Shown here: piece by piece, positions 13,867 to 41,013 of the stretch
Layout: every line of letters begins with the position of its first letter
Numbering within the stretch: position 1 is the stretch's first letter
Origin: a virus
Direction: 5' to 3' (one strand)
Length of the DNA: 41,947 bases
Virus record (IMG/VR): IMGVR_UViG_3300042278_000030
Position numbers and translations under genes: made by a program
Notes under the pieces: generated by a model
Told to the model about the DNA's origin: nothing
Databases searched by the model: none
What the model saw: only the letters and a program-made list of their open reading frames with translations

Positions 13867-14334
13867 ATGAAAGAACTTATTGAATTGTTTGTCGAAAAAT
13901 TTGGTCGTTTTCCGCTCGGATATGTGCATGACGAACTTCTATCATGGGCAACCAGGGAAATCATCACCCTCCGCCAGCAGATTGCCGAGAGCGAAGCGCG
14001 GATAGCGGAGCAGGTAGAATTTGAAGATTATGACCCTGGCCTTCTCAACGACTGGGGTGGTGGAAATGTGGCTTGGTGGATGGAGTACATCAGAACTGAA
14101 ATAGAAAGAGCAAACGATCACTGGCGAGAGCAGCTAGAATCGCTGCCGCTCTACACCCACACCCAGCCCGCCGTGCCGGAGGGGTGGAAGTTGGTGCCGA
14201 TTGAACCTACCCACGAGATGACTGAGCAGGGTGCACAAGAGGCCGATTGGTATGCGCATAATGCGTATGACTGTTACAAAGCAATGCTCGATGCAGCCCC
14301 ACAACCACCGAAGGGGGGCGAAGGCGATGAGTGA
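13867..14334 (+). CDS. 155-aa hypothetical protein (Ead/Ea22-like flavour)
   Basis: ATG 13867 lies just after the previous stop. The C-terminal GWKLVPIEPTHEMTEQG...YKAMLDAAP pattern is common in lambdoid early-region proteins. Confidence 0.7.
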   Translation: MKELIELFVEKFGRFPLGYVHDELLSWATREIITLRQQIAESEARIAEQVEFEDYDPGLLNDWGGGNVAWWMEYIRTEIERANDHWREQLESLPLYTHTQPAVPEGWKLVPIEPTHEMTEQGAQEADWYAHNAYDCYKAMLDAAPQPPKGGEGDE

Positions 14335-29526: not shown

Positions 29527-30582
29527 TTACTTGAACCCTTCGATCCTTACTTGGCGGCCCAGGAAATTTATGCGTGTTATGAGTGCACACCTGCACTGAA
29601 CGACTTGGCTTGCACTCGCACCCAAAGCAGTGTCGCCAGGAAATCTAAGGCGACTCCCATCTGGCGCGATAAAGGCTTGCTCGAACGGGATTGGATTCGC
29701 CATATATTGTTGTTCCATCTGCAAATGATCCAGCCTTGTCCGAGCATCTGAGCTGCTGTCCCACGCCTTCGATACGTCCTGCGCATCCAGCTCGCCACGA
29801 ACAACCGCCTGCCGAATGGCCTCAAACTGTCCGGCGCGGAGGGCGTTGATAGACTCCGTGCGGCTTATGACCTCGCCCCGGTAGCGCAATGTGCGCGCCT
29901 GCATCCGACTAATCGCCGTATTGATCTGGCGCTCAGTCAGCGGCTTGCCCTCCTCGATTGCTTTCCGCACAGCGCCATCTAACCGCTTGTCCCTGAGTTC
30001 GCGGGTCAGATAGTTCGGGTTCAGGCTTTCAAGCTCCTCTCGGGCGGTGGCTACCCATTGGGCCTGCCTGCTCGTGAGGCCAATAAAGCCGCCAACCCTT
30101 TGCCCGCTTTTGCGGTCAATCCTCCCCACCAAGTCTAACGCGCTCTGACGCGGATTATCGCCACGCGCAAGGCCAGCCGTCAGCCGCTCCCTGACCATCT
30201 GGCGCTGCTCGTCAAAGACCTCAGTGATCAGCCGTGACGACAGGTTGGCCAGCCACGCCTCGGCAGCCGGAGCGGCCATATTAAAGCGCATGACAAGCGT
30301 GCCGGTTTCGGTGGGTATGGTGCCGATCTGCTCAGCGCCCGTTAGTCCGCCTTGCCGGTATGCCTGCCTGATGGCTTCTTCAAGCGGCTCAAACGTGGCG
30401 CGGTCAAGCTGCAAAAGCTCAATCACGCCATCCACGTTGCCCACCTCCAGCAGGCGCACGATCTCATGAATGACCACCTGATCCTTGACGGACTGGACGG
30501 CCTTGCGGAAGGCGCTGAGGACGGCGAGTTCGTTGTCTTTTGCTATTCGGGAGAGGTTCACTTTCTGCACCCGACAAACCAC
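29527..30582 (-). CDS. Head morphogenesis protein (SPP1 gp7 / Mu F-like)
   Basis: The C-terminal ...SSSDARTRLDHLQMEQQ...VVQCRCALI resembles the Mu F family. The start may instead be GTG 30561 (GTGA overlap with the upstream stop). Confidence 0.8.
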   Translation of the reverse strand: MVCRVQKVNLSRIAKDNELAVLSAFRKAVQSVKDQVVIHEIVRLLEVGNVDGVIELLQLDRATFEPLEEAIRQAYRQGGLTGAEQIGTIPTETGTLVMRFNMAAPAAEAWLANLSSRLITEVFDEQRQMVRERLTAGLARGDNPRQSALDLVGRIDRKSGQRVGGFIGLTSRQAQWVATAREELESLNPNYLTRELRDKRLDGAVRKAIEEGKPLTERQINTAISRMQARTLRYRGEVISRTESINALRAGQFEAIRQAVVRGELDAQDVSKAWDSSSDARTRLDHLQMEQQYMANPIPFEQAFIAPDGSRLRFPGDTALGASASQVVQCRCALITRINFLGRQVRIEGFK

Positions 30583-30917
30583 ACCAACTGCCCATCAGCA
30601 GGCAGAACAGTAGGCGAGTCAACCATCACAATCTGGTACGTTTCGCCGTTAATCGTCATCGTACCCGACAACGTAGGCTCAACCTCAAACGGCGCAACGG
30701 CTAAAAGAATGTCAGTGGCGACGATATAGCCGCCGTCGATGTAGGTCTGCTTTTCGCGGCCCTGAGGCTGTACGGCGCTAACTGGGTATGACTGGCCGGG
30801 AGTGGGTGGGTTAAACGGGTCGCCGTCTGAGCCTGGGGCGTTATATACCACCGCGCCTTGCTGGTATTTGCCAATCAAGCGGCTGGCTGTGGCTTGCATT
30901 CGGGTGTAGAAGCTCAT
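30558..30917 (-). CDS. Head-tail joining / head closure candidate
   Basis: ATG 30917 forms an ATGA overlap with the upstream stop. Assigned from position only. Confidence 0.6.
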   Translation of the reverse strand: MSFYTRMQATASRLIGKYQQGAVVYNAPGSDGDPFNPPTPGQSYPVSAVQPQGREKQTYIDGGYIVATDILLAVAPFEVEPTLSGTMTINGETYQIVMVDSPTVLPADGQLVWFVGCRK

Positions 30918-31201
30918 TGAATCGCCTCCATCCACTCAAAGTTTAAAACGCCGCAACGTCTGCACTGATGGCCACTTGGGGTCAAGTAAAACAGATTACT
31001 CCCGCAATTACAGCGCCACATTGTGTCTGGAACTTGCGGGCCGCGCATGACACCAAAAAACTTGCGGCAGCTCGGGCACTCCATTAATTCGGCATCTTTC
31101 TCTTTGACCATCACCGCCTGCCATTCATGGCCGCACTCGGTGCAGATAGCAGGGCCAGAAAGGTGTGGCTTAAAGCTGTTTATATCGACAACTTCAGCCA
31201 C
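30914..31201 (-). CDS. 95-aa double zinc-ribbon protein inside the head-tail module
   Basis: GTG 31201 follows GAGGTG. Four Cys pairs: CTEC, CPSC, CNC and CRRC. Confidence 0.55.
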   Translation of the reverse strand: MAEVVDINSFKPHLSGPAICTECGHEWQAVMVKEKDAELMECPSCRKFFGVMRGPQVPDTMWRCNCGSNLFYLTPSGHQCRRCGVLNFEWMEAIQ

Positions 31202-31562
31202 GGCGCACCTCAAACGTATTCCCACCAGCACTCCCCAAATAAGGCCGCAACAGCGCCGCCAACTGCGGGTAGTAGGTTGACTGCCTCCCGGTGTCGCTGT
31301 AGCTCACAGACACAGCCCCTGCTACGCTCTCGGACAACACGCGCTGGCCCTGCGGGGCTAGCAGGTCTTCGCCTGAGTCGATCAGCAGGGCGGCAACCAT
31401 TTGGGCGGTTTTGATCTGGTCAGGCACAGGGTCAGGGACAGTTAGGTTTTGCGTGTCCAGGTAGTCCATGGCTTTGATCAGCAAAACGTCAGGGTCGCCA
31501 ACCAGCGTTATTCCTCGGGCGCTGGCGTAGCCTTGCAGTTCTGTAGCGGTTGCGTAGCTCAT
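31194..31562 (-). CDS. Head-tail adaptor (DnaT-like/gp6-like)
   Basis: MSYATATELQGYASARGI... is a typical adaptor N-terminus. SD GGAGcctcaataATG. Confidence 0.75.
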   Translation of the reverse strand: MSYATATELQGYASARGITLVGDPDVLLIKAMDYLDTQNLTVPDPVPDQIKTAQMVAALLIDSGEDLLAPQGQRVLSESVAGAVSVSYSDTGRQSTYYPQLAALLRPYLGSAGGNTFEVRRG

Positions 31563-31589
31563 TATTGAGGCTCCGTTTAATTTTCACTC

Positions 31590-31598
31590 ATTCTAGCA
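31590..31598 (-). promoter_or_regulatory. Extended -10 element (TGcTAGAAT) right after the capsid terminator
   Basis: Minus strand GCGGGGCTTTTTTGTGCTAGAATgagtg. No good -35. Confidence 0.35.
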
Positions 31599-31624
31599 CA
31601 AAAAAGCCCCGCATATAGCAGGGC
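31597..31624 (-). terminator. Intrinsic terminator after the capsid gene and mini-ORF
   Basis: Minus strand GCCCTGC tatat GCGGGGC (one G-U pair) followed by TTTTTTGTG. Confidence 0.75.
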
Positions 31625-31643
31625 TCCTTTGCAGCCTTTCGGC

Positions 31644-31760
31644 TTACTTCTTGCGCTTTTCCCGCTTAATTTCAGCCAGCTTTTCCGGGCTAACGCGCTG
31701 GCCCGGAATCAGGCCGTCCTTGTTTCGCTTTTCCTGTTGCGCTTTTGCTTCTTCGGCCAT
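31644..31760 (-). CDS. 38-aa Lys/Glu-rich mini-ORF downstream of the capsid gene
   Basis: GAGGAAactgaccATG. Sequence MAEEAKAQQEKRNKDGLIPGQRVSPEKLAEIKREKRKK. Confidence 0.4.
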   Translation of the reverse strand: MAEEAKAQQEKRNKDGLIPGQRVSPEKLAEIKREKRKK

Positions 31761-31771
31761 GGTCAGTTTCC

Positions 31772-32785
31772 TCAGTTGTGAACGTAGAAGGCCATGCCAA
31801 CGTTTTCACGCTGGTATGTCCGGGTCCAGTTGGCAGCCGCCTCAACCTCAGCCACTGTCGGGCCAGCGGCAGCTGCAACAGAGGCCTCGTTCCAGCGGTA
31901 GCCCATCGGGTGGATCAGCCACTGCTTGCGCTCCCACAGGGTCTCAATGCCCGCACCGTTACCAGCGGACTCGTCGTACTCGACAGCAACAGGACGCTCC
32001 GGGGTGCCTTCTGCGTAGCCGAAGACGCCGCCAGTGTACAGTACAGACACGTACTTGAAGCCAGAAGTGCCGCCAGCAATAACCGGCATCTTCTTGTCCT
32101 GAACGAGTCGCTTGCCGTTGTAGAACGGGATCATCAGGCCGGTCTCGCTGTCCTGAATGAACTCGATCTGATTCTGCTTGCGCATCTGCGCCATGGTGTC
32201 GGGATGCACAGCCAGCAGGGTGATGTTGTCGTCGGACTCGCCCATGGTAGCGACGGCGTCAACGAATCCCTCAAAGCTCCACTTGTTGGCGGCGGTTGCG
32301 TTATCGCCGTCCTCGGTGGACACGTCGAAGATCATATCGCCAGTGCCGGCGGCGTTTTCGTTGAAGATGCCAAGCGTTGCTGCCTGAATCCGAGCGGCAA
32401 AGCGCTGATCCCAGTAGGCCGCAGTGCGTGACGCAATCTGCTGCATCGGGTTTTCGGAGCCCATCACAGAGGACACCAGGTTAGCAGTCTGCCAGCCGTT
32501 GTTCAGGTGAACACGACGGGCAACCATGCGGCCAGTGTCGATCTTGTCAGGAGTGGCGTTTTCAGTCGGGTCGTCGCTGGAGATATTCTCGCCAGAGGCG
32601 TCCAGATCCTTCCAGTACGGCACAGAGGTAATGTCGCCAGAGCCAGAAGCGCGGGCGGCGAGGTCTGCGTTAGTGACGGCTACACCGGATTGAATGTAGG
32701 CGTTGCGGTCCGGGCGATTTTCCTGCACATACGACAGGTACACATCCGGATCAAATTGAATATCAGAGAGTTGTGTGGTGGCCAT
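31772..32785 (-). CDS. Major capsid protein
   Basis: 337 aa. Follows the scaffold gene and is followed by a strong terminator. Confidence 0.9.
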   Translation of the reverse strand: MATTQLSDIQFDPDVYLSYVQENRPDRNAYIQSGVAVTNADLAARASGSGDITSVPYWKDLDASGENISSDDPTENATPDKIDTGRMVARRVHLNNGWQTANLVSSVMGSENPMQQIASRTAAYWDQRFAARIQAATLGIFNENAAGTGDMIFDVSTEDGDNATAANKWSFEGFVDAVATMGESDDNITLLAVHPDTMAQMRKQNQIEFIQDSETGLMIPFYNGKRLVQDKKMPVIAGGTSGFKYVSVLYTGGVFGYAEGTPERPVAVEYDESAGNGAGIETLWERKQWLIHPMGYRWNEASVAAAAGPTVAEVEAAANWTRTYQRENVGMAFYVHN

Positions 32786-32788
32786 GGT

Positions 32789-33448
32789 TTAGGCTCCTTT
32801 CAGGTTTCGGTAAAATTCCGCAGGGTTGTCCTGCTTGAGCTGCAATCGCTCTTTCTCGCTCATTTCAGACCATTTTTTCCCTGCACCCGAGGGTTTGCCA
32901 CCGGTAGCGCCTCCACCAGTAGCGCCGGAATCTGCGAGGTAGTATTCATATTCCTCGCCTTCCATGATCAACCGCTTCAGCTCTTCGGCGCTGGTTACGT
33001 TCTCGCCGCGAACTGTAAACTCATTCTTTTCGATATCGACATCAAACTCAAAATCCGCCTTCAGCAACTTGCGCAGATGCTTGGCGCGGGTTGCGTCAGC
33101 TGGCTTGACCTCCTCGAGAAGGCTGGTGATGAAGTTTTCCACCTTTTCCTTCTTGGTCATATTCAGCAGGTCCGAAAATTTCTTACGCTCGTCCTCTACC
33201 GCTTGGCGCTTCTCGGCTTCCCGCTCTTCGGCAATCCGGCGCAACGTCTCGTTATCGCCCTCCGCCTTGGCCTTTGCCTCCTCCAGTTCTCGGACCTGTT
33301 CTTTGGCGTGTCGAACCTTGTCGGCCAGCTCTTTCTTCTCGGCTTTCAGGTTCTCGTTGGTCACCTGAAGCCCTTTAACCTCGGCATTCAGCTCATCTTG
33401 AGTGTATACCGTGATCGTCTTTCCTTCGCGTTCGATTTGCATTGGCAT
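32789..33448 (-). CDS. Scaffolding protein
   Basis: E/K-rich coiled coil between the portal and capsid genes. ATG 33448 follows AGGTG. Confidence 0.8.
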   Translation of the reverse strand: MPMQIEREGKTITVYTQDELNAEVKGLQVTNENLKAEKKELADKVRHAKEQVRELEEAKAKAEGDNETLRRIAEEREAEKRQAVEDERKKFSDLLNMTKKEKVENFITSLLEEVKPADATRAKHLRKLLKADFEFDVDIEKNEFTVRGENVTSAEELKRLIMEGEEYEYYLADSGATGGGATGGKPSGAGKKWSEMSEKERLQLKQDNPAEFYRNLKGA

Positions 33449-33515
33449 TCTGAGCACCTGTCAGATTGTTGTTACAGCGCCTGCTGTAACGGGTTTGTTG
33501 AATTATAACACCTGC

Positions 33516-34955
33516 TTACTCGAATTCGCTACCGTTCGTCAATAGGGACGAGGCCGCGTCATCCAGGATGGCATCATCCTCCCTGTCCGGGTTAAGGATA
33601 ATGCGCCCCTCTCGGATCATGTGGATGGCGTCAATAGCGCCGTAAATGGTCCCCACGCCCTGCTGAATCGCGGCCAGGTCTTGCGCGCTTAGGCTGGTTT
33701 CCCAGAAAGACTGGTTCAACCGGTACAGTACGCCTTTCGGGTCTTCCCCGGCAAATCTCGCCACGTCCTCAAGGGCCGCTTCCAGCGCCTCGCTGCCATT
33801 GCCAACAAGGTTATCCAGTGTTGACGCCTCAGCACTTGCCGCCAACCTTGCGGCTTCTGCCGTTTCGGTTTGCCCGCCTCTCTGAACCAGGCGCGCACCA
33901 ATGGCCACCATTTGCGCCTCTTCGTGCGCCATCGTGCCCAGAATATCGCCCTGACGACTATCGCCCTGTAATAGCTTTGCAGAGCCGCCGCCCGCCGTGA
34001 CAAGGCCGTTACGCCTACCAATGGTTACGCCGTTGGGGTTAGCCCTTTGGAACTCATCAAGATCCATTGTGCCGATATCAAGATGCAGCGTGCCCTGGGC
34101 GCTGAAGAACTGGTTTTCTTTCAACTCTGCCGTGCTTTGGTAGTGCGCAATGTTCAGCACAGCCATATCGTAAAGCGGAGCAACATCCGGCTCCGGATAG
34201 TTGTTCGTTGCGCCTGCGATGTGGAACGGGATGTGGTCGAACGTAGCGCCGCCAGCCATGCGAGGTGTATATTCTGCCGTCAGAGTTTCGCCGGACTCGT
34301 CGTAAACGGCCTGGCTGTAAACGCCGTCTCTCAAGCGCAATACGCGGTAAATAAGCTTGTCTTCGTGGCCGAACTCGTCGTTCGAATCGTCCACCGATTC
34401 CGCCAGCACGACAAGCGTCAACATCTTGCGCCCGTTAACGCCTTCGAATCGCCAGTTGATAATGCTTTCGGCAGGGTAAGCTGACACCGTAGGCCGCAGT
34501 CCTAGCTGCCTGGCTTTGCGCTTGTCCGACTTGGCCGGAGCTTCCGGGTAATCGACCAATAGGCCATACCGCCCAACGGTCAACAGCTCGCCAACCATCT
34601 CTTTCGCCAGCTGGTCAACGCTCTGTCCCGCCCCGTCGATATTCTCCAGCAAATCCTCAACTGCCTTTGGCAATTCATAGGTAGGCGGCTTTCGGAAAAC
34701 CATCCCCGTCAGGGCTTCTTTGGTGCGGCTTGTCACGCCCATGAAGTAGGCGCGCTCAATGTATTGCCTGTAGCGCACCGGGTCAGCAGGGCTGATCACT
34801 GTACCGCTTGCATCCTTCGTGTCCTCGGCAAACGATGCCGGCAGGTAGACGGTCCCGCGCCGCTTAATTGCGCTCTGCCCCGCCACACAGTCACGGACTA
34901 GCTGCCAATCTGGTAGGTTTCGCGTATAGTCTGGGTGCGGAGTTGATACCGGCAT
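33516..34955 (-). CDS. Portal protein
   Basis: 479 aa, immediately after terL. Confidence 0.9.
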   Translation of the reverse strand: MPVSTPHPDYTRNLPDWQLVRDCVAGQSAIKRRGTVYLPASFAEDTKDASGTVISPADPVRYRQYIERAYFMGVTSRTKEALTGMVFRKPPTYELPKAVEDLLENIDGAGQSVDQLAKEMVGELLTVGRYGLLVDYPEAPAKSDKRKARQLGLRPTVSAYPAESIINWRFEGVNGRKMLTLVVLAESVDDSNDEFGHEDKLIYRVLRLRDGVYSQAVYDESGETLTAEYTPRMAGGATFDHIPFHIAGATNNYPEPDVAPLYDMAVLNIAHYQSTAELKENQFFSAQGTLHLDIGTMDLDEFQRANPNGVTIGRRNGLVTAGGGSAKLLQGDSRQGDILGTMAHEEAQMVAIGARLVQRGGQTETAEAARLAASAEASTLDNLVGNGSEALEAALEDVARFAGEDPKGVLYRLNQSFWETSLSAQDLAAIQQGVGTIYGAIDAIHMIREGRIILNPDREDDAILDDAASSLLTNGSEFE

Positions 34956-35011
34956 ATGGCGTGTCTCACGACAAGGCTGTTGGTTTGTTTCGTATTATGG
35001 CACGGCGCTGA

Positions 35012-36406
35012 TTATAGGGCAAAAGTGACTGGGATGGGTTTGTTTATGCTTCGCCTTGATACAAGCATATCCTGAACCGCATCCATAAGAGGGTCAACCG
35101 TGTCATCATGGGCTGCAACCGGGAACAGGCTCAGCTCGTGCAATAGATCGGACAGGCATTCATGGCGCATTGGCAGCCACACATTGCCAGCCTCGACCAT
35201 GGGCGCGGCGTCGTACCCTCTGGTGATCTTGTCCTTGTCTCGCTGAATACCTTCAACCGGTATGCCGCCTTGCTTTAGCTGCTGGATCAGACCGGTTCCG
35301 CTGGCCTTGTCCTCAACTTTCATTTTCCTAAGATTTCCGGTTCCTGCGTGCCGACACTTATCCCAAAACGCCCGCGCCTGGCTCAAAAGCTGGGGCGCTT
35401 CCCACTTGCCCCTGATCATGTCAATCAGGTAAATCTTGCCGTCTTTGCCCTTGCCCCAGTGTTGGAACACGCTGAAGTCGTTTTCCTGTCCGGTTTTCAT
35501 GGCCGTGTCTGCGTAAATCATGCGGTATTCAAGTGGCGGCAATTCGTGCCAGTGCTTCAGCCACTCGTCTTTAAATATGCCGCCCCCAGACGGTGCGGGG
35601 CGCTGCATGTACTGGCCCGAGAACACGTAACTGTTCGCTGCCTTGAGCCTGTCCAGCATATCTAGCGGGAACTGCTCAGGCCAGAAGCTATCGCCGTTAT
35701 CCGTCATGGCTGGAATGCATAGATGATCCCACTCTTCGCCGTTGCCGCCAGCCAAAAGCCAGCCGGTCAGGTCTGACTCGTGAAGCCGCTGCATGATCAA
35801 GATGATAGGCGTGTCCGGGCTGTTTTTGCGGCTTTCCATGGTGGTGGCGAACCAGTCCAAAACGTTTTGGCGCATGGTCTGACTGTTTGCCTCGCCAGCC
35901 TTGTGAGGATCGTCTATTACTATTGCGCCCTTGAATCTCCCCCCCATGCCTCCGGCGCCATATCCAGTTATAGAGCCTTCCGCCCCAGTTGCGTACACAA
36001 TGCCGCCCTGAGCCGTGCGGAACTCATCCTTTGCTTTTGAGTCCCCGGCCAGTGCGGTGTGGCTGAATATCTCGGCATAGGTTTCGTGCTGCATGATCGC
36101 CCTAACGGCATAGGCGTTTGCGGTGGCGAGCCGCTTGGAATAGCTGGCGTGAATGAATTCGGACTCCGGGAAGTTGCCCATGCACCACGCGATAAAGTTG
36201 ATCACCGCCAGCTCGGTCTTGCCGGAGCGCGGCGGGACGTTAATGATCAGTCGCTTGGTTTTGCCGATTACGACGCGCTCAAGGGCATTGCAGATTTCGG
36301 CTTGGTGCCAGTTCTCTTTTAGCTCCGCACCCTTTCGGGCGCGAAACATGGTCTTCGTAAAGGTGAGAAGGTCGGTGCGGTTGTCCGCGATGTCATTCGG
36401 GTTCAT
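35012..36406 (-). CDS. terL: Terminase large subunit
   Basis: Walker A VPPRSGKT, Walker B-like AIVIDDPH and a C-terminal RNaseH-like nuclease region (HDDTVD). Confidence 0.95.
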   Translation of the reverse strand: MNPNDIADNRTDLLTFTKTMFRARKGAELKENWHQAEICNALERVVIGKTKRLIINVPPRSGKTELAVINFIAWCMGNFPESEFIHASYSKRLATANAYAVRAIMQHETYAEIFSHTALAGDSKAKDEFRTAQGGIVYATGAEGSITGYGAGGMGGRFKGAIVIDDPHKAGEANSQTMRQNVLDWFATTMESRKNSPDTPIILIMQRLHESDLTGWLLAGGNGEEWDHLCIPAMTDNGDSFWPEQFPLDMLDRLKAANSYVFSGQYMQRPAPSGGGIFKDEWLKHWHELPPLEYRMIYADTAMKTGQENDFSVFQHWGKGKDGKIYLIDMIRGKWEAPQLLSQARAFWDKCRHAGTGNLRKMKVEDKASGTGLIQQLKQGGIPVEGIQRDKDKITRGYDAAPMVEAGNVWLPMRHECLSDLLHELSLFPVAAHDDTVDPLMDAVQDMLVSRRSINKPIPVTFAL

Positions 36407-36812
36407 GCTTTGCTTTCAGGGCTGCCAATACGGCGTCCTGGACAGACTGCATTGGTTGGCCTGCCGTGGTGTGGTCGATTTCTTGTCGTGCGCTGTGTGA
36501 CTTCGGGGCCATGCGCTCAGCCGCCCACTTCAGGCCATCCAGCATAGCTCTAGCTGATTGCGGGTCAATCTCTCCGGCGGCCACTCGGTCAACGGTATCA
36601 ATAACCCTGTCAGCGTGCGAAAAGCCGCCAGCTGTCCGCGCTTGCATGTATTGTTCCGAAAACCCATCCCGGTTTTGGACTACAGCAAGTAGCACGGTGC
36701 TGATAGCGGGGAATGACTCATCTCGGCAAATGGAACGCAACGACTCGCCGGACGACAATCTAAAGCAGATTTCGTCTCGGATTTCTTGTGTCATTACAGT
36801 CGGTCTTGCCAT
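36393..36812 (-). CDS. terS: Terminase small subunit
   Basis: 139 aa with an N-terminal HTH (EIRDEICFRLSSGESLRSICRD). Overlaps the terL start. Confidence 0.8.
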   Translation of the reverse strand: MARPTVMTQEIRDEICFRLSSGESLRSICRDESFPAISTVLLAVVQNRDGFSEQYMQARTAGGFSHADRVIDTVDRVAAGEIDPQSARAMLDGLKWAAERMAPKSHSARQEIDHTTAGQPMQSVQDAVLAALKAKHEPE

Positions 36813-36819
36813 ACCTAAC

Positions 36820-36847
36820 AGTATACCTCGAAAAAAAATCCCCGCAA
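36820..36847 (-). promoter_or_regulatory. Candidate promoter (TTGCGG-16-TATACT) ending 7 nt before the terS ATG
   Basis: Minus strand TTGCGGggattttttttcgaggTATACTgttaggtATG. The -35 lies in the terminator stem. Confidence 0.35.
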
Positions 36848-36855
36848 TCGCGGGG
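36831..36855 (-). terminator. Strong intrinsic terminator separating the early region from terS
   Basis: Minus strand CCCCGC gatt GCGGGG followed by TTTTTTTT. Confidence 0.7.
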
Positions 36856-36998
36856 CAAGATGGAGAGAGAGGAAGCCCCGACTATCTGCCGCCGTCGGGA
36901 TGGCGGGTTTTGGCGTGTGGCGTCAGGGCGTGACTCCAGATTACTCCGCCGCTGGCTGCTTAGTCTGTGACACCACAACCACCTTTTCGCACCACACT

Positions 36999-37088
36999 GA
37001 TCAGCAGCCTCTGACCGGCCTGCAACGAGCATCCTGTAGGCGTTGGCGGTTGGCGGGCGCTCGTCTCAGATCTCAGAGACTGCTGATC
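36999..37088. other. Nested imperfect inverted repeats in the 328-bp non-coding region upstream of terS (cos/pac or structured-RNA candidate)
   Basis: Outer arms GATCAGCAGcCTCTGA (36999-37014) and TCAGAGaCTGCTGATC (37073-37088). Inner arms ACGAGC (37025-30) and GCTCGT (37059-64). Tandem TCTCAGA TCTCAGA at 37064-37077. GTTGGCG occurs twice. Confidence 0.5.
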
Positions 37089-37140: not shown

Positions 37141-37590
37141 CTAGTATAGCCCAACCCTCACCGTCAAAGCCAGCGCCTCGCCGAACAGCACAAAACCAGG
37201 CTGGACACGGTACTTTGTGTAGTGCAGCGACGGAAACGCCATCGGACACACTCGCGCCTTATCGCCGTCATCGCCATAGCAGCTCCTGTAGCCGTGCACG
37301 GCGCCGACATACAAAGACCCGCGCCAATCGCCCCACTGCTTCGACCATCCGTAGCCCGCAAGGTATGAGCGCCGCCCGTAGCTGTTGCGGAAGGTGGCCG
37401 CCATGACTGAGCCAACCTCTACGCCGATCAGATCGTGACTGCTGGTGTAATCGACCTTGTTGCCTGTGACGATGTGGTAGCTCCAGCCTCCGGCGTGCAG
37501 GGCGGTTTCTGCATGCGCGGGCACGCATAGGGCCGTAGCGGCCAGAAAGGCGAAGATGGTGGTGATGCGGTAGGCTGTGTTGGTTTTCAT
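37141..37590 (-). CDS. Secreted small beta-barrel outer-membrane-like protein (moron candidate)
   Basis: AAGGAtttccccATG at 37590. Signal peptide MKTNTAYRITTIFAFLAATALCVPAHA|E. Alternating hydrophobic pattern with a C-terminal ...LTVRVGLY aromatic end. Confidence 0.7.
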   Translation of the reverse strand: MKTNTAYRITTIFAFLAATALCVPAHAETALHAGGWSYHIVTGNKVDYTSSHDLIGVEVGSVMAATFRNSYGRRSYLAGYGWSKQWGDWRGSLYVGAVHGYRSCYGDDGDKARVCPMAFPSLHYTKYRVQPGFVLFGEALALTVRVGLY

Positions 37591-37690
37591 GGGGAAATCC
37601 TTGGGAGCTGCCATTGGCGGGCGGTTGGGGAGATGATGTTAGGCCAGTTTTACGCCATGGCCCCGGGCCTGAGCCCAGGGCGGAGGCTGG

Positions 37691-37999: not shown

Positions 38000-38033
38000 A
38001 ACATTTCTCCGCATTCCGTGTTGGTATTGTTGA

Positions 38034-38062
38034 ACTATACCTATCGGGGCTGCCACTGTTAA
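38034..38062 (-). promoter_or_regulatory. Sigma70-like internal promoter
   Basis: Minus strand TTAACA - 17 nt - TATAGT. Confidence 0.5.
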
Positions 38063-38091
38063 ATACCGATTAGCATCAACAGCCGCCCGCC

Positions 38092-38313
38092 TTATAACTT
38101 TTCGTTGCCTGCCTGGCGTACCGGCAACAACCGCCAGCACTCATGCGGGTATCGCGGCGCACTGTCAATGCTGACTGGCTGACTGGCGTCGGCCTCCAGG
38201 TAGTCCAGGTACCGCTTGCACCGGCTGCGCTGCGGGCAGAGCCTGGTGCGGTTTGCGCCTGTGCATAAGCGGGCGGGTGTCTGGGTCATTGGGCGTGCTG
38301 CTGTCAGTCCCAT
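38092..38313 (-). CDS. Cys-containing basic hypothetical protein (start 38313 or 38289)
   Basis: Open frame in operon orientation. Weak SD. Confidence 0.45.
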   Translation of the reverse strand: MGLTAARPMTQTPARLCTGANRTRLCPQRSRCKRYLDYLEADASQPVSIDSAPRYPHECWRLLPVRQAGNEKL

Positions 38314-38618
38314 ACGTCCTTACCTGTTTCTGCGTAGTACCAACTTGAGTCCATTTGAGCGGCGCGCATAAAGCTCTCAACATCACCCATGTTCAGCAGG
38401 CCGATGATGTCGTTTTCTGTTGCTGTCTGCTCAATCAGCTCAGGCTCAACGCCAGCCTCGATCGCGGCTGCGAAGCTGTGGTGGCCGTCAAGGATCACCT
38501 GATATTCCTCGCCCTCGTACTCAAACGTCGGGCTTACTTGCACTTCAAAATCCTGCGCCTCAATCTTCTTAGCTACGATTTCGTCGTCGATATAGCGCTG
38601 GCTGCTGATAAGTTTCAT
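38304..38618 (-). CDS. 104-aa acidic protein with ParB/Srx-like core (DGHHS)
   Basis: YQVILDGHHSFAAAIEAGVEP resembles the ParB N-terminal/sulfiredoxin-fold DGHHR...A..G motif with Arg replaced by Ser. SD GAGGAAAGGAAAATG. Confidence 0.7.
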   Translation of the reverse strand: MKLISSQRYIDDEIVAKKIEAQDFEVQVSPTFEYEGEEYQVILDGHHSFAAAIEAGVEPELIEQTATENDIIGLLNMGDVESFMRAAQMDSSWYYAETGKDVWD

Positions 38619-38653
38619 TTTCCTTTCCTCGTTTCCGTCTCTCTATGGTTCCC

Positions 38654-38683
38654 ATTATCGCAACCACGGCCCCTACTTGTGAA
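38654..38683 (-). promoter_or_regulatory. Candidate promoter (TTCACA-18-TGcGATAAT)
   Basis: Minus-strand hexamers with an extended -10 TG, about 35 nt before the ATG at 38618. Confidence 0.45.
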
Positions 38684-38725
38684 ATATCAATTGGTAGCAA
38701 AAAGCGGTTTGCTTATTCCGTTTTG

Positions 38726-38833
38726 TTAGTGAGCCGGCTTTGCTGCCGTTGCTGCCGCCAGTATCTCTTCCTGTATCGCGCAGTTGTACAGCTCTTCGTT
38801 GTTGTGATTGGCCTGTTCTGCGTTGAGTGTCAT
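38726..38833 (-). CDS. 35-aa mini-ORF
   Basis: AAGGActaacaccATG. Sequence MTLNAEQANHNNEELYNCAIQEEILAAATAAKPAH. Confidence 0.35.
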   Translation of the reverse strand: MTLNAEQANHNNEELYNCAIQEEILAAATAAKPAH

Positions 38834-38837
38834 GGTG

Positions 38838-39155
38838 TTAGTCCTTTTTTGTGTCTAGTAGCTTATTCACCAATGCACTGCCCTCACTGTAAACCTCGCT
38901 GTCCTCAATGCTGAAGCTATCAATTCCGACCAGCATGCAGCCAAGAGCCTTATCCAGCAATTCCACCAAACGATAATGATAATTCGCGGCGGTTACGATG
39001 AATTGGGCGTTGGCTTCCGCTTCTGACTTATCTGGCCATTTCCTGTCGCCCTCCCAACTGTCGGTTTCGTAAGGTTTTACCCATACTCCGCTATGGCTAA
39101 CTACAGCCTCACCATCTACAACGCTCCAAGGTAGCGGCGTATGCCTATCGCTCAT
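38838..39155 (-). CDS. 105-aa hypothetical protein
   Basis: ATG 39155 forms an ATGA overlap with the release-factor-like gene. Sequence begins MSDRHTPLPWSVVDGE... Confidence 0.7.
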   Translation of the reverse strand: MSDRHTPLPWSVVDGEAVVSHSGVWVKPYETDSWEGDRKWPDKSEAEANAQFIVTAANYHYRLVELLDKALGCMLVGIDSFSIEDSEVYSEGSALVNKLLDTKKD

Positions 39156-39364
39156 TGTGATTCCCCTCTGGACAACTTCTCGTTTATTCGGCGCATACAC
39201 TCATCCCGATTCTGATGCTGCGACCGGAAGTCTTCGCAAGTCTCCGTCAGGCCGCTTGGGATATGCGTAACCTTTATGCCCTTGGACATTCTTGGAACTT
39301 GCATGCCGTGCCCAGACCTTTGCGGCCACTCCTGGATTACCCAGTCGTTACACTTGCTCATCAT
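39152..39364 (-). CDS. Stand-alone class-I release-factor GGQ-domain (RF-1 domain) miniprotein with GMQ in place of GGQ
   Basis: QRSGHGMQVPRMSKGIKVTHIPSGLTETCEDFRSQHQNRDECMRRINEKL aligns by eye with RF2 [51 protein letters not shown] (from memory). It is only 70 aa. Confidence 0.8.
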   Translation of the reverse strand: MMSKCNDWVIQEWPQRSGHGMQVPRMSKGIKVTHIPSGLTETCEDFRSQHQNRDECMRRINEKLSRGESQ

Positions 39365-39659
39365 TCGCCTCCTTATTCTTCAGCCTCGCCATAACATCCT
39401 CAAACGATCCGGCGGGCTGGTGGTCTTGGTTGATCTTCCTGACTTGGCGGCAGTTGCAATCCCATATATCTGTTCCGTCGGGGCCAATAGTTCCTGTTTT
39501 TATTTCTATGCCGTCGGGCTCGCTTGGTCCTACAACCGTGCACAATTTTCCTAAATCAGGGTCGTTTTTGATTTCAGAGTCAACCAAAACAACCTCATCG
39601 CCCACCCGCAATGGCCTTCCGTCGATGTCGTGTCCAAGAACTGCGCTCATCTCTTCCAT
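39348..39659 (-). CDS. 103-aa hypothetical protein
   Basis: ORF in operon orientation, overlapping its neighbours at both ends. Confidence 0.7.
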   Translation of the reverse strand: MEEMSAVLGHDIDGRPLRVGDEVVLVDSEIKNDPDLGKLCTVVGPSEPDGIEIKTGTIGPDGTDIWDCNCRQVRKINQDHQPAGSFEDVMARLKNKEANDEQV

Positions 39660-39826
39660 TGCACATACTCCATGAATGCATCAAACCCATCGACGTCTAC
39701 CCCGTTATCGTCTCCCCACTGCTCGGCAGCGTGCTCAAGCATGGCTTGCCGAGCTCCATCCGGCATTTCGTCATTATCAACGGCAGACATATAGCCAAAC
39801 ACCTGAATTTTCTGATACTCACTCAT
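39647..39826 (-). CDS. 59-aa acidic miniprotein
   Basis: Not in the ORF track. Sequence MSEYQKIQVFGYMSAVDNDEMPDGARQAMLEHAAEQWGDDNGVDVDGFDAFMEYVQWKR. Overlaps its neighbours by 8 and 13 nt. Confidence 0.55.
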   Translation of the reverse strand: MSEYQKIQVFGYMSAVDNDEMPDGARQAMLEHAAEQWGDDNGVDVDGFDAFMEYVQWKR

Positions 39827-40022
39827 CTCGCCCCCTCAATCTCTTGTCGCCTACAGCGCCCTTGTCGTTGTTGGTGGCAGTCTGCCCAGCGTTAAGCACC
39901 TTATGCGCCTCCACGGCCTTCCTGAGCCCGTCTGCGTAGCCGTTTCCGATACGGCCCAGGTAATCATAGTCCTCTTGCTTGATGTATAGGTTGCGGCGGT
40001 TTTTGTCGGTTGGGCGGGTCAT
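39819..40022 (-). CDS. 67-aa ribbon-helix-helix-like protein
   Basis: NRRNLYIKQEDYDYLGRIG...GLRKAVEAH fits a beta-strand/helix/helix RHH layout. ATGA overlap upstream. Confidence 0.55.
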   Translation of the reverse strand: MTRPTDKNRRNLYIKQEDYDYLGRIGNGYADGLRKAVEAHKVLNAGQTATNNDKGAVGDKRLRGRDE

Positions 40023-40201
40023 AGTGCAAACCTCCAGCCGCCGTTGGTGTCCATTTCCACTCTGCGCCAGCCGCCTGGAATAACATCGGCTTGAAAGCGG
40101 TCTGTGTCGTCAAGGTCTGCAAACCGGTACAAGCCCGCCTCGTATGAGACTGCGTAAACTGCCCGGTTGTTTGGCTCCAGGTAGAATCCTAGGTTTTTCA
40201 T
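40019..40201 (-). CDS. 60-aa hypothetical early protein
   Basis: ATG 40201 forms an ATGA overlap with the upstream ORF. Sequence begins MKNLGFYLEPNNRAVYAVSYEAGLYRF... Confidence 0.6.
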   Translation of the reverse strand: MKNLGFYLEPNNRAVYAVSYEAGLYRFADLDDTDRFQADVIPGGWRRVEMDTNGGWRFAL

Positions 40202-40356
40202 TTCGCGCCCCCATTCCGTGCCAGCCACTTCTCCGCACCTTTGCGGGTTTTGAAGTCTTTGGACTTGGTGAAAGTCATGGCGGTGAAGGTGCCGTTGCCG
40301 TTATCGAAAATGCCTTTGCTGATCTGCTCGTTGTTGCCGAGGTTGATTGTTTTCAT
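40198..40356 (-). CDS. 52-aa hypothetical protein, first gene of the leftward early operon
   Basis: Not in the ORF track. GGAGcaacaaccATG. Sequence MKTINLGNNEQISKGIFDNGNGTFTAMTFTKSKDFKTRKGAEKWLARNGGAK. Confidence 0.55.
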   Translation of the reverse strand: MKTINLGNNEQISKGIFDNGNGTFTAMTFTKSKDFKTRKGAEKWLARNGGAK

Positions 40357-40392
40357 GGTTGTTGCTCCGTTGCCGTTGTCTTGATGATTCTA

Positions 40393-40420
40393 ATTATACA
40401 CACATACACACCTTGCGCAA
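40393..40420 (-). promoter_or_regulatory. Leftward early promoter
   Basis: Minus strand TTGCGC - 16 nt - TATAAT, about 35 nt upstream of the ATG at 40356. Confidence 0.6.
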
Positions 40421-40433
40421 GAAAGGCAGGGCT

Positions 40434-40453
40434 AGTTTTGTAAAGTTTTGTAA
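40434..40453. repeat. Perfect tandem 10-mer AGTTTTGTAA x2 just upstream of the leftward -35
   Basis: Read directly from the sequence: ctAGTTTTGTAAAGTTTTGTAAcagg. Confidence 0.9.
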
Positions 40454-40462
40454 CAGGAGAGA

Positions 40463-40703
40463 ACGGGTAGTAACGGTTAGTATTTTACTTGCTAAGCCTT
40501 TTCTTCTTTTAACTTATTGTTTTTTATATATATTTTAGAAGGGTTAGTACGGATAGACGGTTAGTTAAAGACAATGGAAATCCGAAACCCTAAATTGTTT
40601 CTTTAGAGTCCTGCTATCCGTACTAACCGTTTTTAAGTGATTGATTCTGAAAGGATTAACGCTTAGCAAGATTCGACTAACCGTTGACTAAGCCACTAAG
40701 CGT
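40463..40703. repeat. Iteron cluster flanking an AT-rich tract: putative replication origin / regulatory region
   Basis: ACGGTTAGT at 40473-81 and 40557-65. Its complement ACTAACCGT at 40622-30 and 40676-84. Degenerate copies at 40463, 40540, 40549, 40614 and 40695. A 15-bp inverted repeat GGTTAGTACGGATAG (40542-56) / CTATCCGTACTAACC (40614-28). AT-rich ttttcttcttttaacttattgttttttatatatatttt at about 40499-40538. Confidence 0.55.
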
Positions 40704-40770
40704 TAAGGGCTAAATCCATGAAAACGAGGCGTTTTCGGTGCTCAAGCTTCATGTATAACCCCGCTGTGGC

Positions 40771-40800
40771 TTGCCGTCAACCCAGCCCGTGGTCTATAGT
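40771..40800 (+). promoter_or_regulatory. Rightward early promoter
   Basis: TTGCCG - 18 nt - TATAGT, then AGGAG (40826-30) and the ATG at 40840. Confidence 0.5.
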
Positions 40801-40839
40801 TCGCTGTACCTTTACGACAATCAACAGGAGTAAAACGCT

Positions 40840-41013
40840 ATGATGACCATTGAAGAAATCCGCAAGCAACTGCAAGACCTGCGCCCCGTCAGGGTTTCCG
40901 AGGCTACTGGCCTGCACACCAACACCGTTCGGGATATTCGCGACAACCCACAAGCCAATCCAACCTACCGTGCCCTCAAAGCGCTGTCTGACTACCTGGA
41001 GTCCCGCCAATGA
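40840..41013 (+). CDS. 57-aa HTH DNA-binding protein (Cro-like)
   Basis: Not in the ORF track. VSEATGLHTNTVRDIRDN is an HTH segment. SD AGGAGtaaaacgctATG. Confidence 0.7.
   Translation: MMTIEEIRKQLQDLRPVRVSEATGLHTNTVRDIRDNPQANPTYRALKALSDYLESRQ

Follow-up and report, generated by a model that had tools for sequence, protein, structure and literature searches.

Few motifs in biology are, to our knowledge, as highly conserved as the GGQ tripeptide of release factors (RFs), and the presence of its glutamine is taken as the mark of an active factor. C12orf65 (mtRF-R) is a small GGQ domain that has no decoding function and acts on split large subunits together with a partner. A survey of RF evolution gives RF1, RF2, ArfB, and PrfH as the bacterial versions, with the glutamine retained in both ArfB and PrfH, and describes MRPS35 as a bRF-PH domain that lost the glutamine and serves as a structural ribosome binder; the word "phage" does not occur in its text (PMC6514570). 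The basic C-terminal helix of ArfB and ICT1 probes the empty mRNA channel and is needed for ribosome binding, according to a second study (PMC3950681). Within the GGQ motif, the torsions of the two glycines are open only to Gly, and mutation of either abolishes release (PMC5799190; PMC4691834). The glutamine acts through its backbone amide, its side chain packs and selects water, and a Q-to-E change keeps activity (PMC4691834); an N5-methyl group on the glutamine improves packing on U2506, A2451, and A2452 (PMC5799190). Here we describe a mini release-factor gene (mini-RF; RF-PH/RF-1 domain) on the minus strand at positions 39152 to 39364 of the 41,947-nucleotide virus sequence IMGVR_UViG_3300042278_000030 (the window), the product of which belongs to a large phage subfamily with methionine at the site of the catalytic glutamine.

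Mini-RF is a stand-alone RF-1 domain, equivalent to RF domain 3 alone. The list of open reading frames (ORFs), the sequence, and the JGI gene call agree on a real minus-strand ORF of 70 amino acids (aa), or 69 aa from a second ATG, and its identification as RF domain 3, made by eye in the original prediction, was borne out by sequence and structure comparisons. Pfam RF-1 (PF00472) matched residues 17 to 66 on profile positions 20 to 71, with 39.4 bits against a gathering cut-off of 35 (E = 6.4e-10), and PHROG 20323, "RF-1 domain peptide chain release factor," matched residues 7 to 65 on profile positions 6 to 63 of 73 (E = 1.3e-11). Escherichia coli RF2 was the first match in a phmmer search of Protein Data Bank (PDB) sequences (E = 6.5e-9), and profile-profile alignment of the mini-RF family with canonical RFs by hhalign gave a probability of 98.6%. 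An AlphaFold2 model built from 98 family sequences (mean pLDDT, 80.6) contains strands at residues 8 to 13, 29 to 34, and 39 to 43, a helix at residues 49 to 68, and a long loop that forms the tip. In the superposition that the original prediction had proposed, Foldseek placed this model on domain 3 of RF2 and RF1 in ribosome complexes with TMq values of 0.63 to 0.79 and a probability of 1.0, with PrfH and C12orf65 lower in the ranking.

The resemblance to RF2/RF1 domain 3 comprises the same fold, approximately 30 to 34% identity over approximately 52 residues, and an equal loop length between the first strand and the THxPTG motif. As had been read from the sequence alone, and as both phmmer and family alignments confirmed, THIP(S/T)G (THIPSG in mini-RF), the Cys, and RSQHxN(R/K) (RSQHQNR in mini-RF) are all kept, as is the start of helix alpha7. 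T33-H-I-P-S-G38 (39251 to 39268, minus strand) forms the conserved strand and turn of the RF core, with H34 present in 87 to 100% and P36 and G38 near-invariant in all groups, and R47-S-Q-H-Q-N-R53 (39206 to 39226, minus strand) is the helix start equivalent to that of alpha7, with R47, Q49, and N52 conserved in all four groups compared (mini-GGQ, xGM, hydrophobic type, and canonical). Mini-RF differs from RF1 and RF2 in its truncated helix alpha7, in having HGM for GGQ, and in having "WP" for Y/F-R before the loop. This W13-P14 pair (39323 to 39328, minus strand) is a hallmark of the phage mini-RF family: by column statistics, W/Y and P prevail at these positions in mini-GGQ and xGM proteins, whereas canonical RFs have Y/F-R there.

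Mini-RF also lacks domain 1 of RF1 and RF2, which interacts with RF3 and the L7-L12 stalk, and domains 2 and 4, which carry PxT or SPF for stop-codon reading and the switch loop; no trace of domains 1, 2, and 4 was found in its 70 aa. Nor is there an ArfB-type C-terminal tail, as mini-RF ends 6 residues past L64, the last family-conserved helix position. Both absences had been predicted, and the NCBIfam scores agree with them by falling far below their cut-offs: the prfA and prfB models covered only residues 17 to 68 with 34 to 36 bits (cut-offs, 370 to 423), and the ArfB model gave 13.2 bits (cut-off, 100).

The original prediction also held that the catalytic motif is GMQ, that is, GGQ with the second glycine lost and the glutamine kept. 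The motif is indeed noncanonical, but its register is different. H19-G20-M21 (CAC GGC ATG; 39302 to 39310, minus strand) is the equivalent of GGQ, so that His stands for the first Gly and Met for the catalytic Gln, with the second Gly unchanged, while Q22 (CAA; 39299 to 39301, minus strand) occupies the +1 position, which is His in canonical RFs. From residue 17 onward, phmmer aligned mini-RF with RF2 without gaps and set h-g-m beneath G-G-Q, and W13 and T33 are as far apart as the corresponding Tyr and Thr of RF2, so the loop length is unchanged. In a family alignment by hidden Markov model (HMM) that includes canonical RFs, M21 falls in the Gln column, where 72 domains have M, 46 have Q, 13 have F, 6 have L, and 4 have W, with nearly all of the 46 Q domains coming from canonical RFs, either full-length or fragments; hhalign likewise pairs G20-M21 with G-Q. 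Among the four closest relatives (54 to 57% identity), G20 and M21 are invariant, and position 22 holds Q, G, S, S, or C when the window protein is included. SGHGM is conserved throughout this closest clade, in which residues 22 to 28 are hypervariable, and the +1 position among the 90 M-type members is Q in 21, S in 14, H in 13, L in 12, and R in 11. Together with this family conservation, the three alignments rule out G20-M21-Q22 as the GGQ equivalent. With Met at the methylated-Gln site and an unconserved Q22 next to it, mini-RF would not, judged by its residues, be a substrate of PrmC/HemK, and the argument that its glutamine is still the PrmC substrate falls.

The non-GGQ tip is not peculiar to the window. 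An exhaustive HMMER search of 1.84 billion cluster representatives yielded 514 proteins at E ≤ 1e-3, and a profile search of a 5.8-billion set yielded 187 proteins at E ≤ 1e-5; the majority of close matches were 64 to 95 aa long. Members share W/Y-P before the loop, G(I/V)(K/R)(I/V)TH.P(S/T)G, usually the Cys, and RSQH.N(R/K)..A. The 71 mini-GGQ proteins (median, 70 aa) have G1, G2, and Gln in 71/71 and +1 His in 55/71. The xGM group, made up of members picked for Met at the Gln position after clustering at 50% identity, numbers 90 (median, 82 aa); G1 is kept in 42/90 and is otherwise H, T, R, K, or S, G2 is kept in 85/90, and the +1 residue is variable. A third group of 34 proteins (median, 118 aa) has another hydrophobic residue (F, W, L, I, or V) in place of Gln, with G1 in 10/34, G2 in 22/34, and a variable +1 residue. 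H34, R47, Q49, and N52 are conserved in every group; together with P36 and G38, which are also kept in each, they are common to all ribosome-acting RF-PH proteins. Mini-RF shows all features of the xGM subfamily, namely W/Y-P, Gly-Met, G(I/V)(K/R)(I/V)TH.P(S/T)G, RSQH.N(R/K), and a length of approximately 65 to 95 aa or a short fusion.

Thus, the homologues confirm that a non-GGQ state is conserved at this tripeptide, in the form of Gly-Met rather than GMQ, and the uniqueness implied by the original prediction gives way to membership in a large phage family for which G-Met is the conserved state. Gly-Met and the RF core are kept across approximately 90 clusters at 50% identity, with pairwise identities of 27 to 58%, and loop length varies among the M-type proteins. 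Neighbor-joining ordering arranged the groups in coherent blocks and put mini-RF in a small HGM/KGM clade, although with such short sequences the tree is only indicative. Where the glutamine is kept, the whole tripeptide and its neighbor appear frozen. Where it is replaced, G1 and the +1 position are relaxed and Gly followed by a large hydrophobic residue is kept, which suggests that the tip is no longer constrained as a catalytic loop but in another way.

A few matches lie at the edges of this family. A genome-collection scan with the alignment of close relatives gave two loci in metagenome-assembled genomes (MAGs) of Rickettsiales/Midichloriaceae, both canonical-type GGQ RF ORFs of approximately 360 aa, and one mini-GGQ ORF on a 2.5-kb archaeal-MAG contig. 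No second Pfam domain was found in ten longer family members. P0006, a 790-aa metagenomic protein, was rejected as a spurious repeat match, since it is without the RF core and has only IcmF_C in Pfam; its nine tandem repeats, "...ADWVRQEWPGRTGSE...", resemble the family's first strand and WP motif and could contaminate family profiles. A match of the N-terminal extension of P0043 to 39155 to 39448 was likewise spurious, as it crosses an in-frame stop.

The methionine is real. At least 24 contigs, drawn from several JGI and Sequence Read Archive samples, carry an identical mini-RF protein, and the gene, with the same tip codons in independent assemblies, is found in two phage backbones. This excludes an assembly error at the Met codon as well as the sequencing error that the original prediction had raised. 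Backbone 1 has the replication module of the window, and backbone 2 has a P22-Cro/Prim-Pol module; between them the gene is 99.5% identical, with one synonymous difference only (nucleotide 177, A>G). Directly upstream of mini-RF, the backbones fall to approximately 47% identity, and the protein encoded by the upstream 103-aa gene falls to 55%. The same protein in two backbones with a lone synonymous change argues that the mini-RF gene block is a mosaic unit under purifying selection. The block of RF, 105-aa, 35-aa, and 104-aa genes is 98 to 100% identical between the two phage lineages. Comparison of the window with loci L005 to L008 and L017 puts the mosaic breakpoint at approximately 39348 to 39700, directly upstream of mini-RF, and the replication modules across it are Prim-Pol/PriCT_2 versus P22_Cro plus Prim-Pol/DUF5906.

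Comparison with described systems sets mini-RF apart from each of them. ArfB (YaeJ) and ICT1 (mL62) are alike in being GGQ-type domains that act without decoding domains and independently of the codon, but theirs is GGQ, and their inserted helix alpha-i, linker, and basic C-terminal helix are all missing from mini-RF. PrfH, encoded with RtcB2, offers the parallel of a horizontally spread RF paralogue that takes part in conflicts by rescuing nuclease-damaged ribosomes, and its structure (9mor_A) matched the mini-RF model with a TMq of 0.70; however, in PrfH a decoding-like domain accompanies an intact GGQ, and RtcB is its partner (PMC6514570). The PrfH model TIGR03072 gave mini-RF 26.2 bits against a cut-off of 166.65, and no RtcB was found among the called genes within approximately 6 kb on either side. 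C12orf65/mtRF-R, which works with MTRES1, is similar as a small RF-type domain without decoding, and MRPS35 provides a precedent for a Gln-less bRF-PH domain. Both belong to eukaryotic organelles and carry additional helical domains, mtRF-R retains GGQ, and no partner was found for mini-RF. Dom34/Pelota is a functional analogy only, having an unrelated fold (aeRF1 superfamily), three domains, and the involvement of a GTPase and ABCE1.

The nearest counterparts are other phage stand-alone RF-1-domain proteins (PHROG 20323 and others), which share with mini-RF a length of approximately 65 to 130 aa, the pattern WP...G-x...G(V/I)K(V/I)TH, and a location in early or accessory regions but are just 30 to 41% identical to it. 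Examples are the "peptide chain release factor 1" of Otagovirus phiPsa374 (gp006) and phiPsa347, small ORFs of Acinetobacter phages 133 and Minot, and the "RF-1" of Mycobacterium phage Phabba. The Pseudomonas Otagovirus protein phiPsa374 gp006 (L009, 2986 to 3378), annotated merely as hypothetical or as "release factor 1," also has Met at the Gln position (GGM). It is 131 aa long and, as in the other Otagovirus proteins and unlike mini-RF, its RF domain is followed by a C-terminal segment like the C-terminal domain of L7/L12, resembling the elongation-factor-binding helices of that ribosomal protein. Pfam PF00542 matched it with E = 1.5e-5 and 25.6 bits, just under the cut-off of 25.9, and 11 of 12 phmmer matches in the PDB (E = 3e-4), including the top 10, were bL12. 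The Acinetobacter proteins differ in having another degenerate tip (...GASNW...) and in being located in tRNA arrays; that of Minot (L010, 2328 to 3207) is a 78-aa degenerate mini-RF with the tip "...KGASNW..." inside a tRNA array, directly after tRNA-Met. A tRNA with a CUA anticodon (called tRNA-Pyl), amber-suppressor-like, lies approximately 570 bp upstream of the Minot gene. In this phage group, a link of RF-domain genes to stop-codon decoding is possible.

All loci examined were phage-like. The mini-RF gene lay in their early, replication, or accessory regions, surrounded by small ORFs, and its neighboring genes differed in every context. In the 3- to 6-kb flanks covered, tRNA genes occurred within a few kilobases in 4 of the 17 family loci, and an RF-1-domain coding sequence has been described as the core gene of one class of mycobacterial/mycobacteriophage tRNA arrays (PMC5966550). 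Anti-defense-type domains were seen within a few kilobases of some relatives: an Acb2/Tad1 hairpin (L001, 3271 to 3507), Gad2 (L012, 6502 to 7044; L013, 3693 to 4244), and a weak match to the Lar restriction-alleviation domain (L011, 8892 to 9104). By weak guilt by association, this suggests that the family sits in counter-defense/accessory islands. PADLOC models had no match at E ≤ 1 to the mini-RF gene or to either of its neighbors.

Our explanation, to which we tentatively assign nearly but not quite an even chance, is that mini-RF is a codon-independent binder of the ribosomal A site and peptidyl-transferase center (PTC), an RF mimic with a remodeled tip, and that its HGM form is an occupant or modulator rather than a canonical hydrolase. 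Mini-RF would dock like RF domain 3 in the large-subunit A site, with the tip reaching into the PTC. Its conserved core is the one that brings the loop into this site and is common to RF1/RF2, ArfB, ICT1, and PrfH, all active on the ribosome, and the L12-like fusion and tRNA-array settings of relatives connect the family to translation. Since it has neither decoding domains nor a tail, its action would be codon independent and its intrinsic affinity low, and low affinity would favor ribosomes or split 50S-peptidyl-tRNA complexes with a long-empty A site, such as those left by damage to tRNA or mRNA in the course of infection. At the tip, the hydrophobic residue could pack in the PTC pocket of methyl-Gln (U2506, A2451, and A2452), and the protein may compete there with RFs, rescue factors, or acceptor ends. 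Loss of the first Gly argues against the canonical hydrolysis mechanism; because the glycine geometry that this mechanism needs appears to have been given up, with His at the first Gly, the HGM protein is more likely a nonhydrolytic occupant or modulator of the PTC.

Several points weigh against this explanation. The case for ribosome binding comes only from homology and from conserved core residues, many of which may be structural, and the links to translation stem from relatives just 30 to 37% identical to the window protein. GGQ domains on their own, for example ArfB lacking its tail, bind ribosomes poorly according to one study (PMC3950681), and a 70-aa mini-RF may therefore need a partner, of which none was found. 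About half of the xGM members (42/90) retain GGM with both glycines; given this and the packing-only role of the Gln side chain, hydrolysis may survive in part of the subfamily. Finally, the benefit to a phage of a PTC "plug" is unclear.

Survival of hydrolysis is the core of one alternative, in which mini-RF serves the phage as a ribosome-rescue factor like its mini-GGQ relatives, still hydrolyzing peptidyl-tRNA whatever the codon, with Met in place of (methyl-)Gln and thus without a need for host PrmC. The mini-GGQ sisters have the same size and genomic niche and keep GGQ in 71/71, so the ancestral role was probably hydrolysis. Retention of activity would accord with a Gln side chain that mainly packs and selects water, catalysis being due to the backbone amide and Q-to-E being active (PMC4691834), and with a Met that is hydrophobic, similar in length to Gln, and able to mimic the methyl packing (PMC5799190). 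The tRNA-array and L12-like associations fit rescue as well, and both glycines are kept in 42/90 M-type members. However, any change at either Gly reportedly abolishes release (PMC5799190; PMC4691834), and in mini-RF and its SGHGM-conserving clade the first Gly is His. Relaxation of G1 and the +1 His and the variable loop length in M-type proteins speak against a precise catalytic geometry, and mini-RF has no anchoring tail. We therefore regard this role as possible but rather unlikely.

RF domain 3 is the part of RFs that PrmC modifies, and the fold of the mini-RF model agrees with that of RF1 in complex with PrmC (2b3t; TMq, 0.71). Mini-RF might then be a decoy or inhibitor of a protein that binds RF domain 3 off the ribosome, with PrmC as the foremost candidate and an RF-targeting defense or toxin protein as another. 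A Met that is not methylatable at N5 and the anti-defense-type genes (Acb2/Tad1 hairpin, Gad2, and Lar-like) near relatives in accessory regions would suit such a role, but a hypervariable tip loop (residues 22 to 28) and a free first Gly would be unexpected in a tight pseudo-substrate of one conserved pocket, and the Phe and Trp of sister clades suit a hydrophobic RNA pocket better than the Gln pocket of PrmC. Both the fusion to an L12-like segment and the location in tRNA arrays suggest the ribosome as the target, mini-RF and its two neighbors have no PADLOC match, no partner is conserved, and the gain from blocking PrmC is not apparent; we consider a decoy improbable. It is more improbable still that mini-RF is a functionless, decaying, or neutral remnant of a captured RF fragment, even if its small size, its loss of the canonical motif, the lack of a conserved partner, and its position in a mosaic region of small ORFs could be read that way. 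G-Met and the RF core would hardly be conserved over approximately 90 diverse clusters in a remnant, and the ORF is intact and identical on the 24 or more contigs and two backbones, with synonymous change only. It is also translationally coupled, with a good Shine-Dalgarno sequence, and its AlphaFold2 model is confident. What probability remains falls to something else.

Stand-alone RF domains in phages are already catalogued, since Pfam, PHROG, UniProt/BFVD, and GenBank label such ORFs "RF-1 domain" or "release factor 1"; what we add is a large subfamily with Met for the otherwise invariant catalytic glutamine. Our literature searches found no description of this Gln-to-Met subfamily and, beyond the tRNA-array paper (PMC5966550), nothing on the function of phage GGQ- or RF-1-domain proteins, in line with the earlier statement that no function had been described. 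Nor did they find a paper describing a viral mechanism that uses RF-domain PTC ligands or a conserved G-Met variant of GGQ. The original description as a minimal, noncanonical RF domain holds. For these phage ORFs, the names "peptide chain release factor 1," "protein subunit release factor A," and the like are misleading, as they transfer function from the domain.

More broadly, it is conceivable, although we would not call it probable, that phages evolved distinct translation modulators from the RF catalytic domain: 70-aa codon-blind A-site/PTC ligands, with Met, Phe, or Trp for Gln, that plug the PTC or release by noncanonical chemistry (with His19 assisting, for example) and control ribosomes stalled by tRNA- or mRNA-targeting defense. 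A large phage family, clearly under selection, that retains the RF core yet fixes Met or an aromatic residue at the Gln site and frees the first glycine bears on whether the Gln side chain is needed and whether a hydrophobic residue is able to replace methyl-Gln. If mini-RFs bind the PTC, they would offer naturally occurring, genetically encoded probes of RF chemistry and would be a new type of viral factor on stalled ribosomes, possibly tied to phage tRNA arrays and to counter-defense against tRNA-cleaving systems.

In the window, mini-RF lies within a string of overlapping minus-strand genes. It opens with two consecutive ATGs, at 39364 (70 aa) and 39361 (69 aa), and ends with TGA at 39152 to 39154. 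A Shine-Dalgarno-like AAGGAGG, read from the sequence, lies at 39368 to 39374 (minus strand), 3 nucleotides before the first ATG and 6 before the second; the second has the better spacing and is the start called by JGI. The overlaps given in the original prediction are found in the sequence: the upstream 103-aa gene of unknown function (39348 to 39659, minus strand) overlaps the start of mini-RF by 17 nucleotides, or 14 from the second ATG, and the start of the downstream 105-aa gene (38838 to 39155, minus strand; phrog_1273, unknown function) overlaps its stop as ATGA. The proposed two-gene system with this downstream gene was rejected at the family level. The phrog_1273 gene lies beside mini-RF only in near-identical phages, and no homologue was found beside the distant relative P0002 by BLASTP or at any other relative locus by tblastn; it is a co-transcribed neighbor of mini-RF and not a conserved partner.

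The gene string extends from a divergent regulatory region toward the terminase genes by way of small unknown ORFs, an order that makes the earlier label of an early or delayed-early operon a reasonable description. No tRNA genes were found in the window, and promoter and terminator scans gave background levels only. Megablast of positions 38000 to 41000 against phages and blastn of 38300 to 39700 against E. coli genomes returned no match, and DNA similarity at 30000 to 37000 was limited to a distant terminase match.

Other ORFs of the window gave minor observations. A 104-aa ORF in the conserved block of mini-RF (38304 to 38618, minus strand) matched phrog_4807, of unknown function (E = 1.3e-16), and had no Pfam match; its "DGHHS" motif recalls ParB/Srx-like nuclease or NTPase domains. 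On the plus strand, an ORF segment at 14086 to 14307 was weakly similar by tblastn (E = 2e-4 to 7e-4) to the parts outside the RF domain in P0014, P0067, and P0127, longer mini-RF family members whose extensions carry a "W.LVPVEPT.EM"-type motif, and is probably a promiscuous small phage domain. Directly downstream of the small-gene string, a 157-aa ORF (37141 to 37614, minus strand) with an N-terminal hydrophobic, signal-like segment matched phrog_3600, PagP antimicrobial peptide resistance/lipid A acylation (E = 2.6e-24). It has the appearance of a lysogenic-conversion moron, and this ORF and a DUF1391 ORF at 40198 to 40356 together hint at an enterobacterial-type host.

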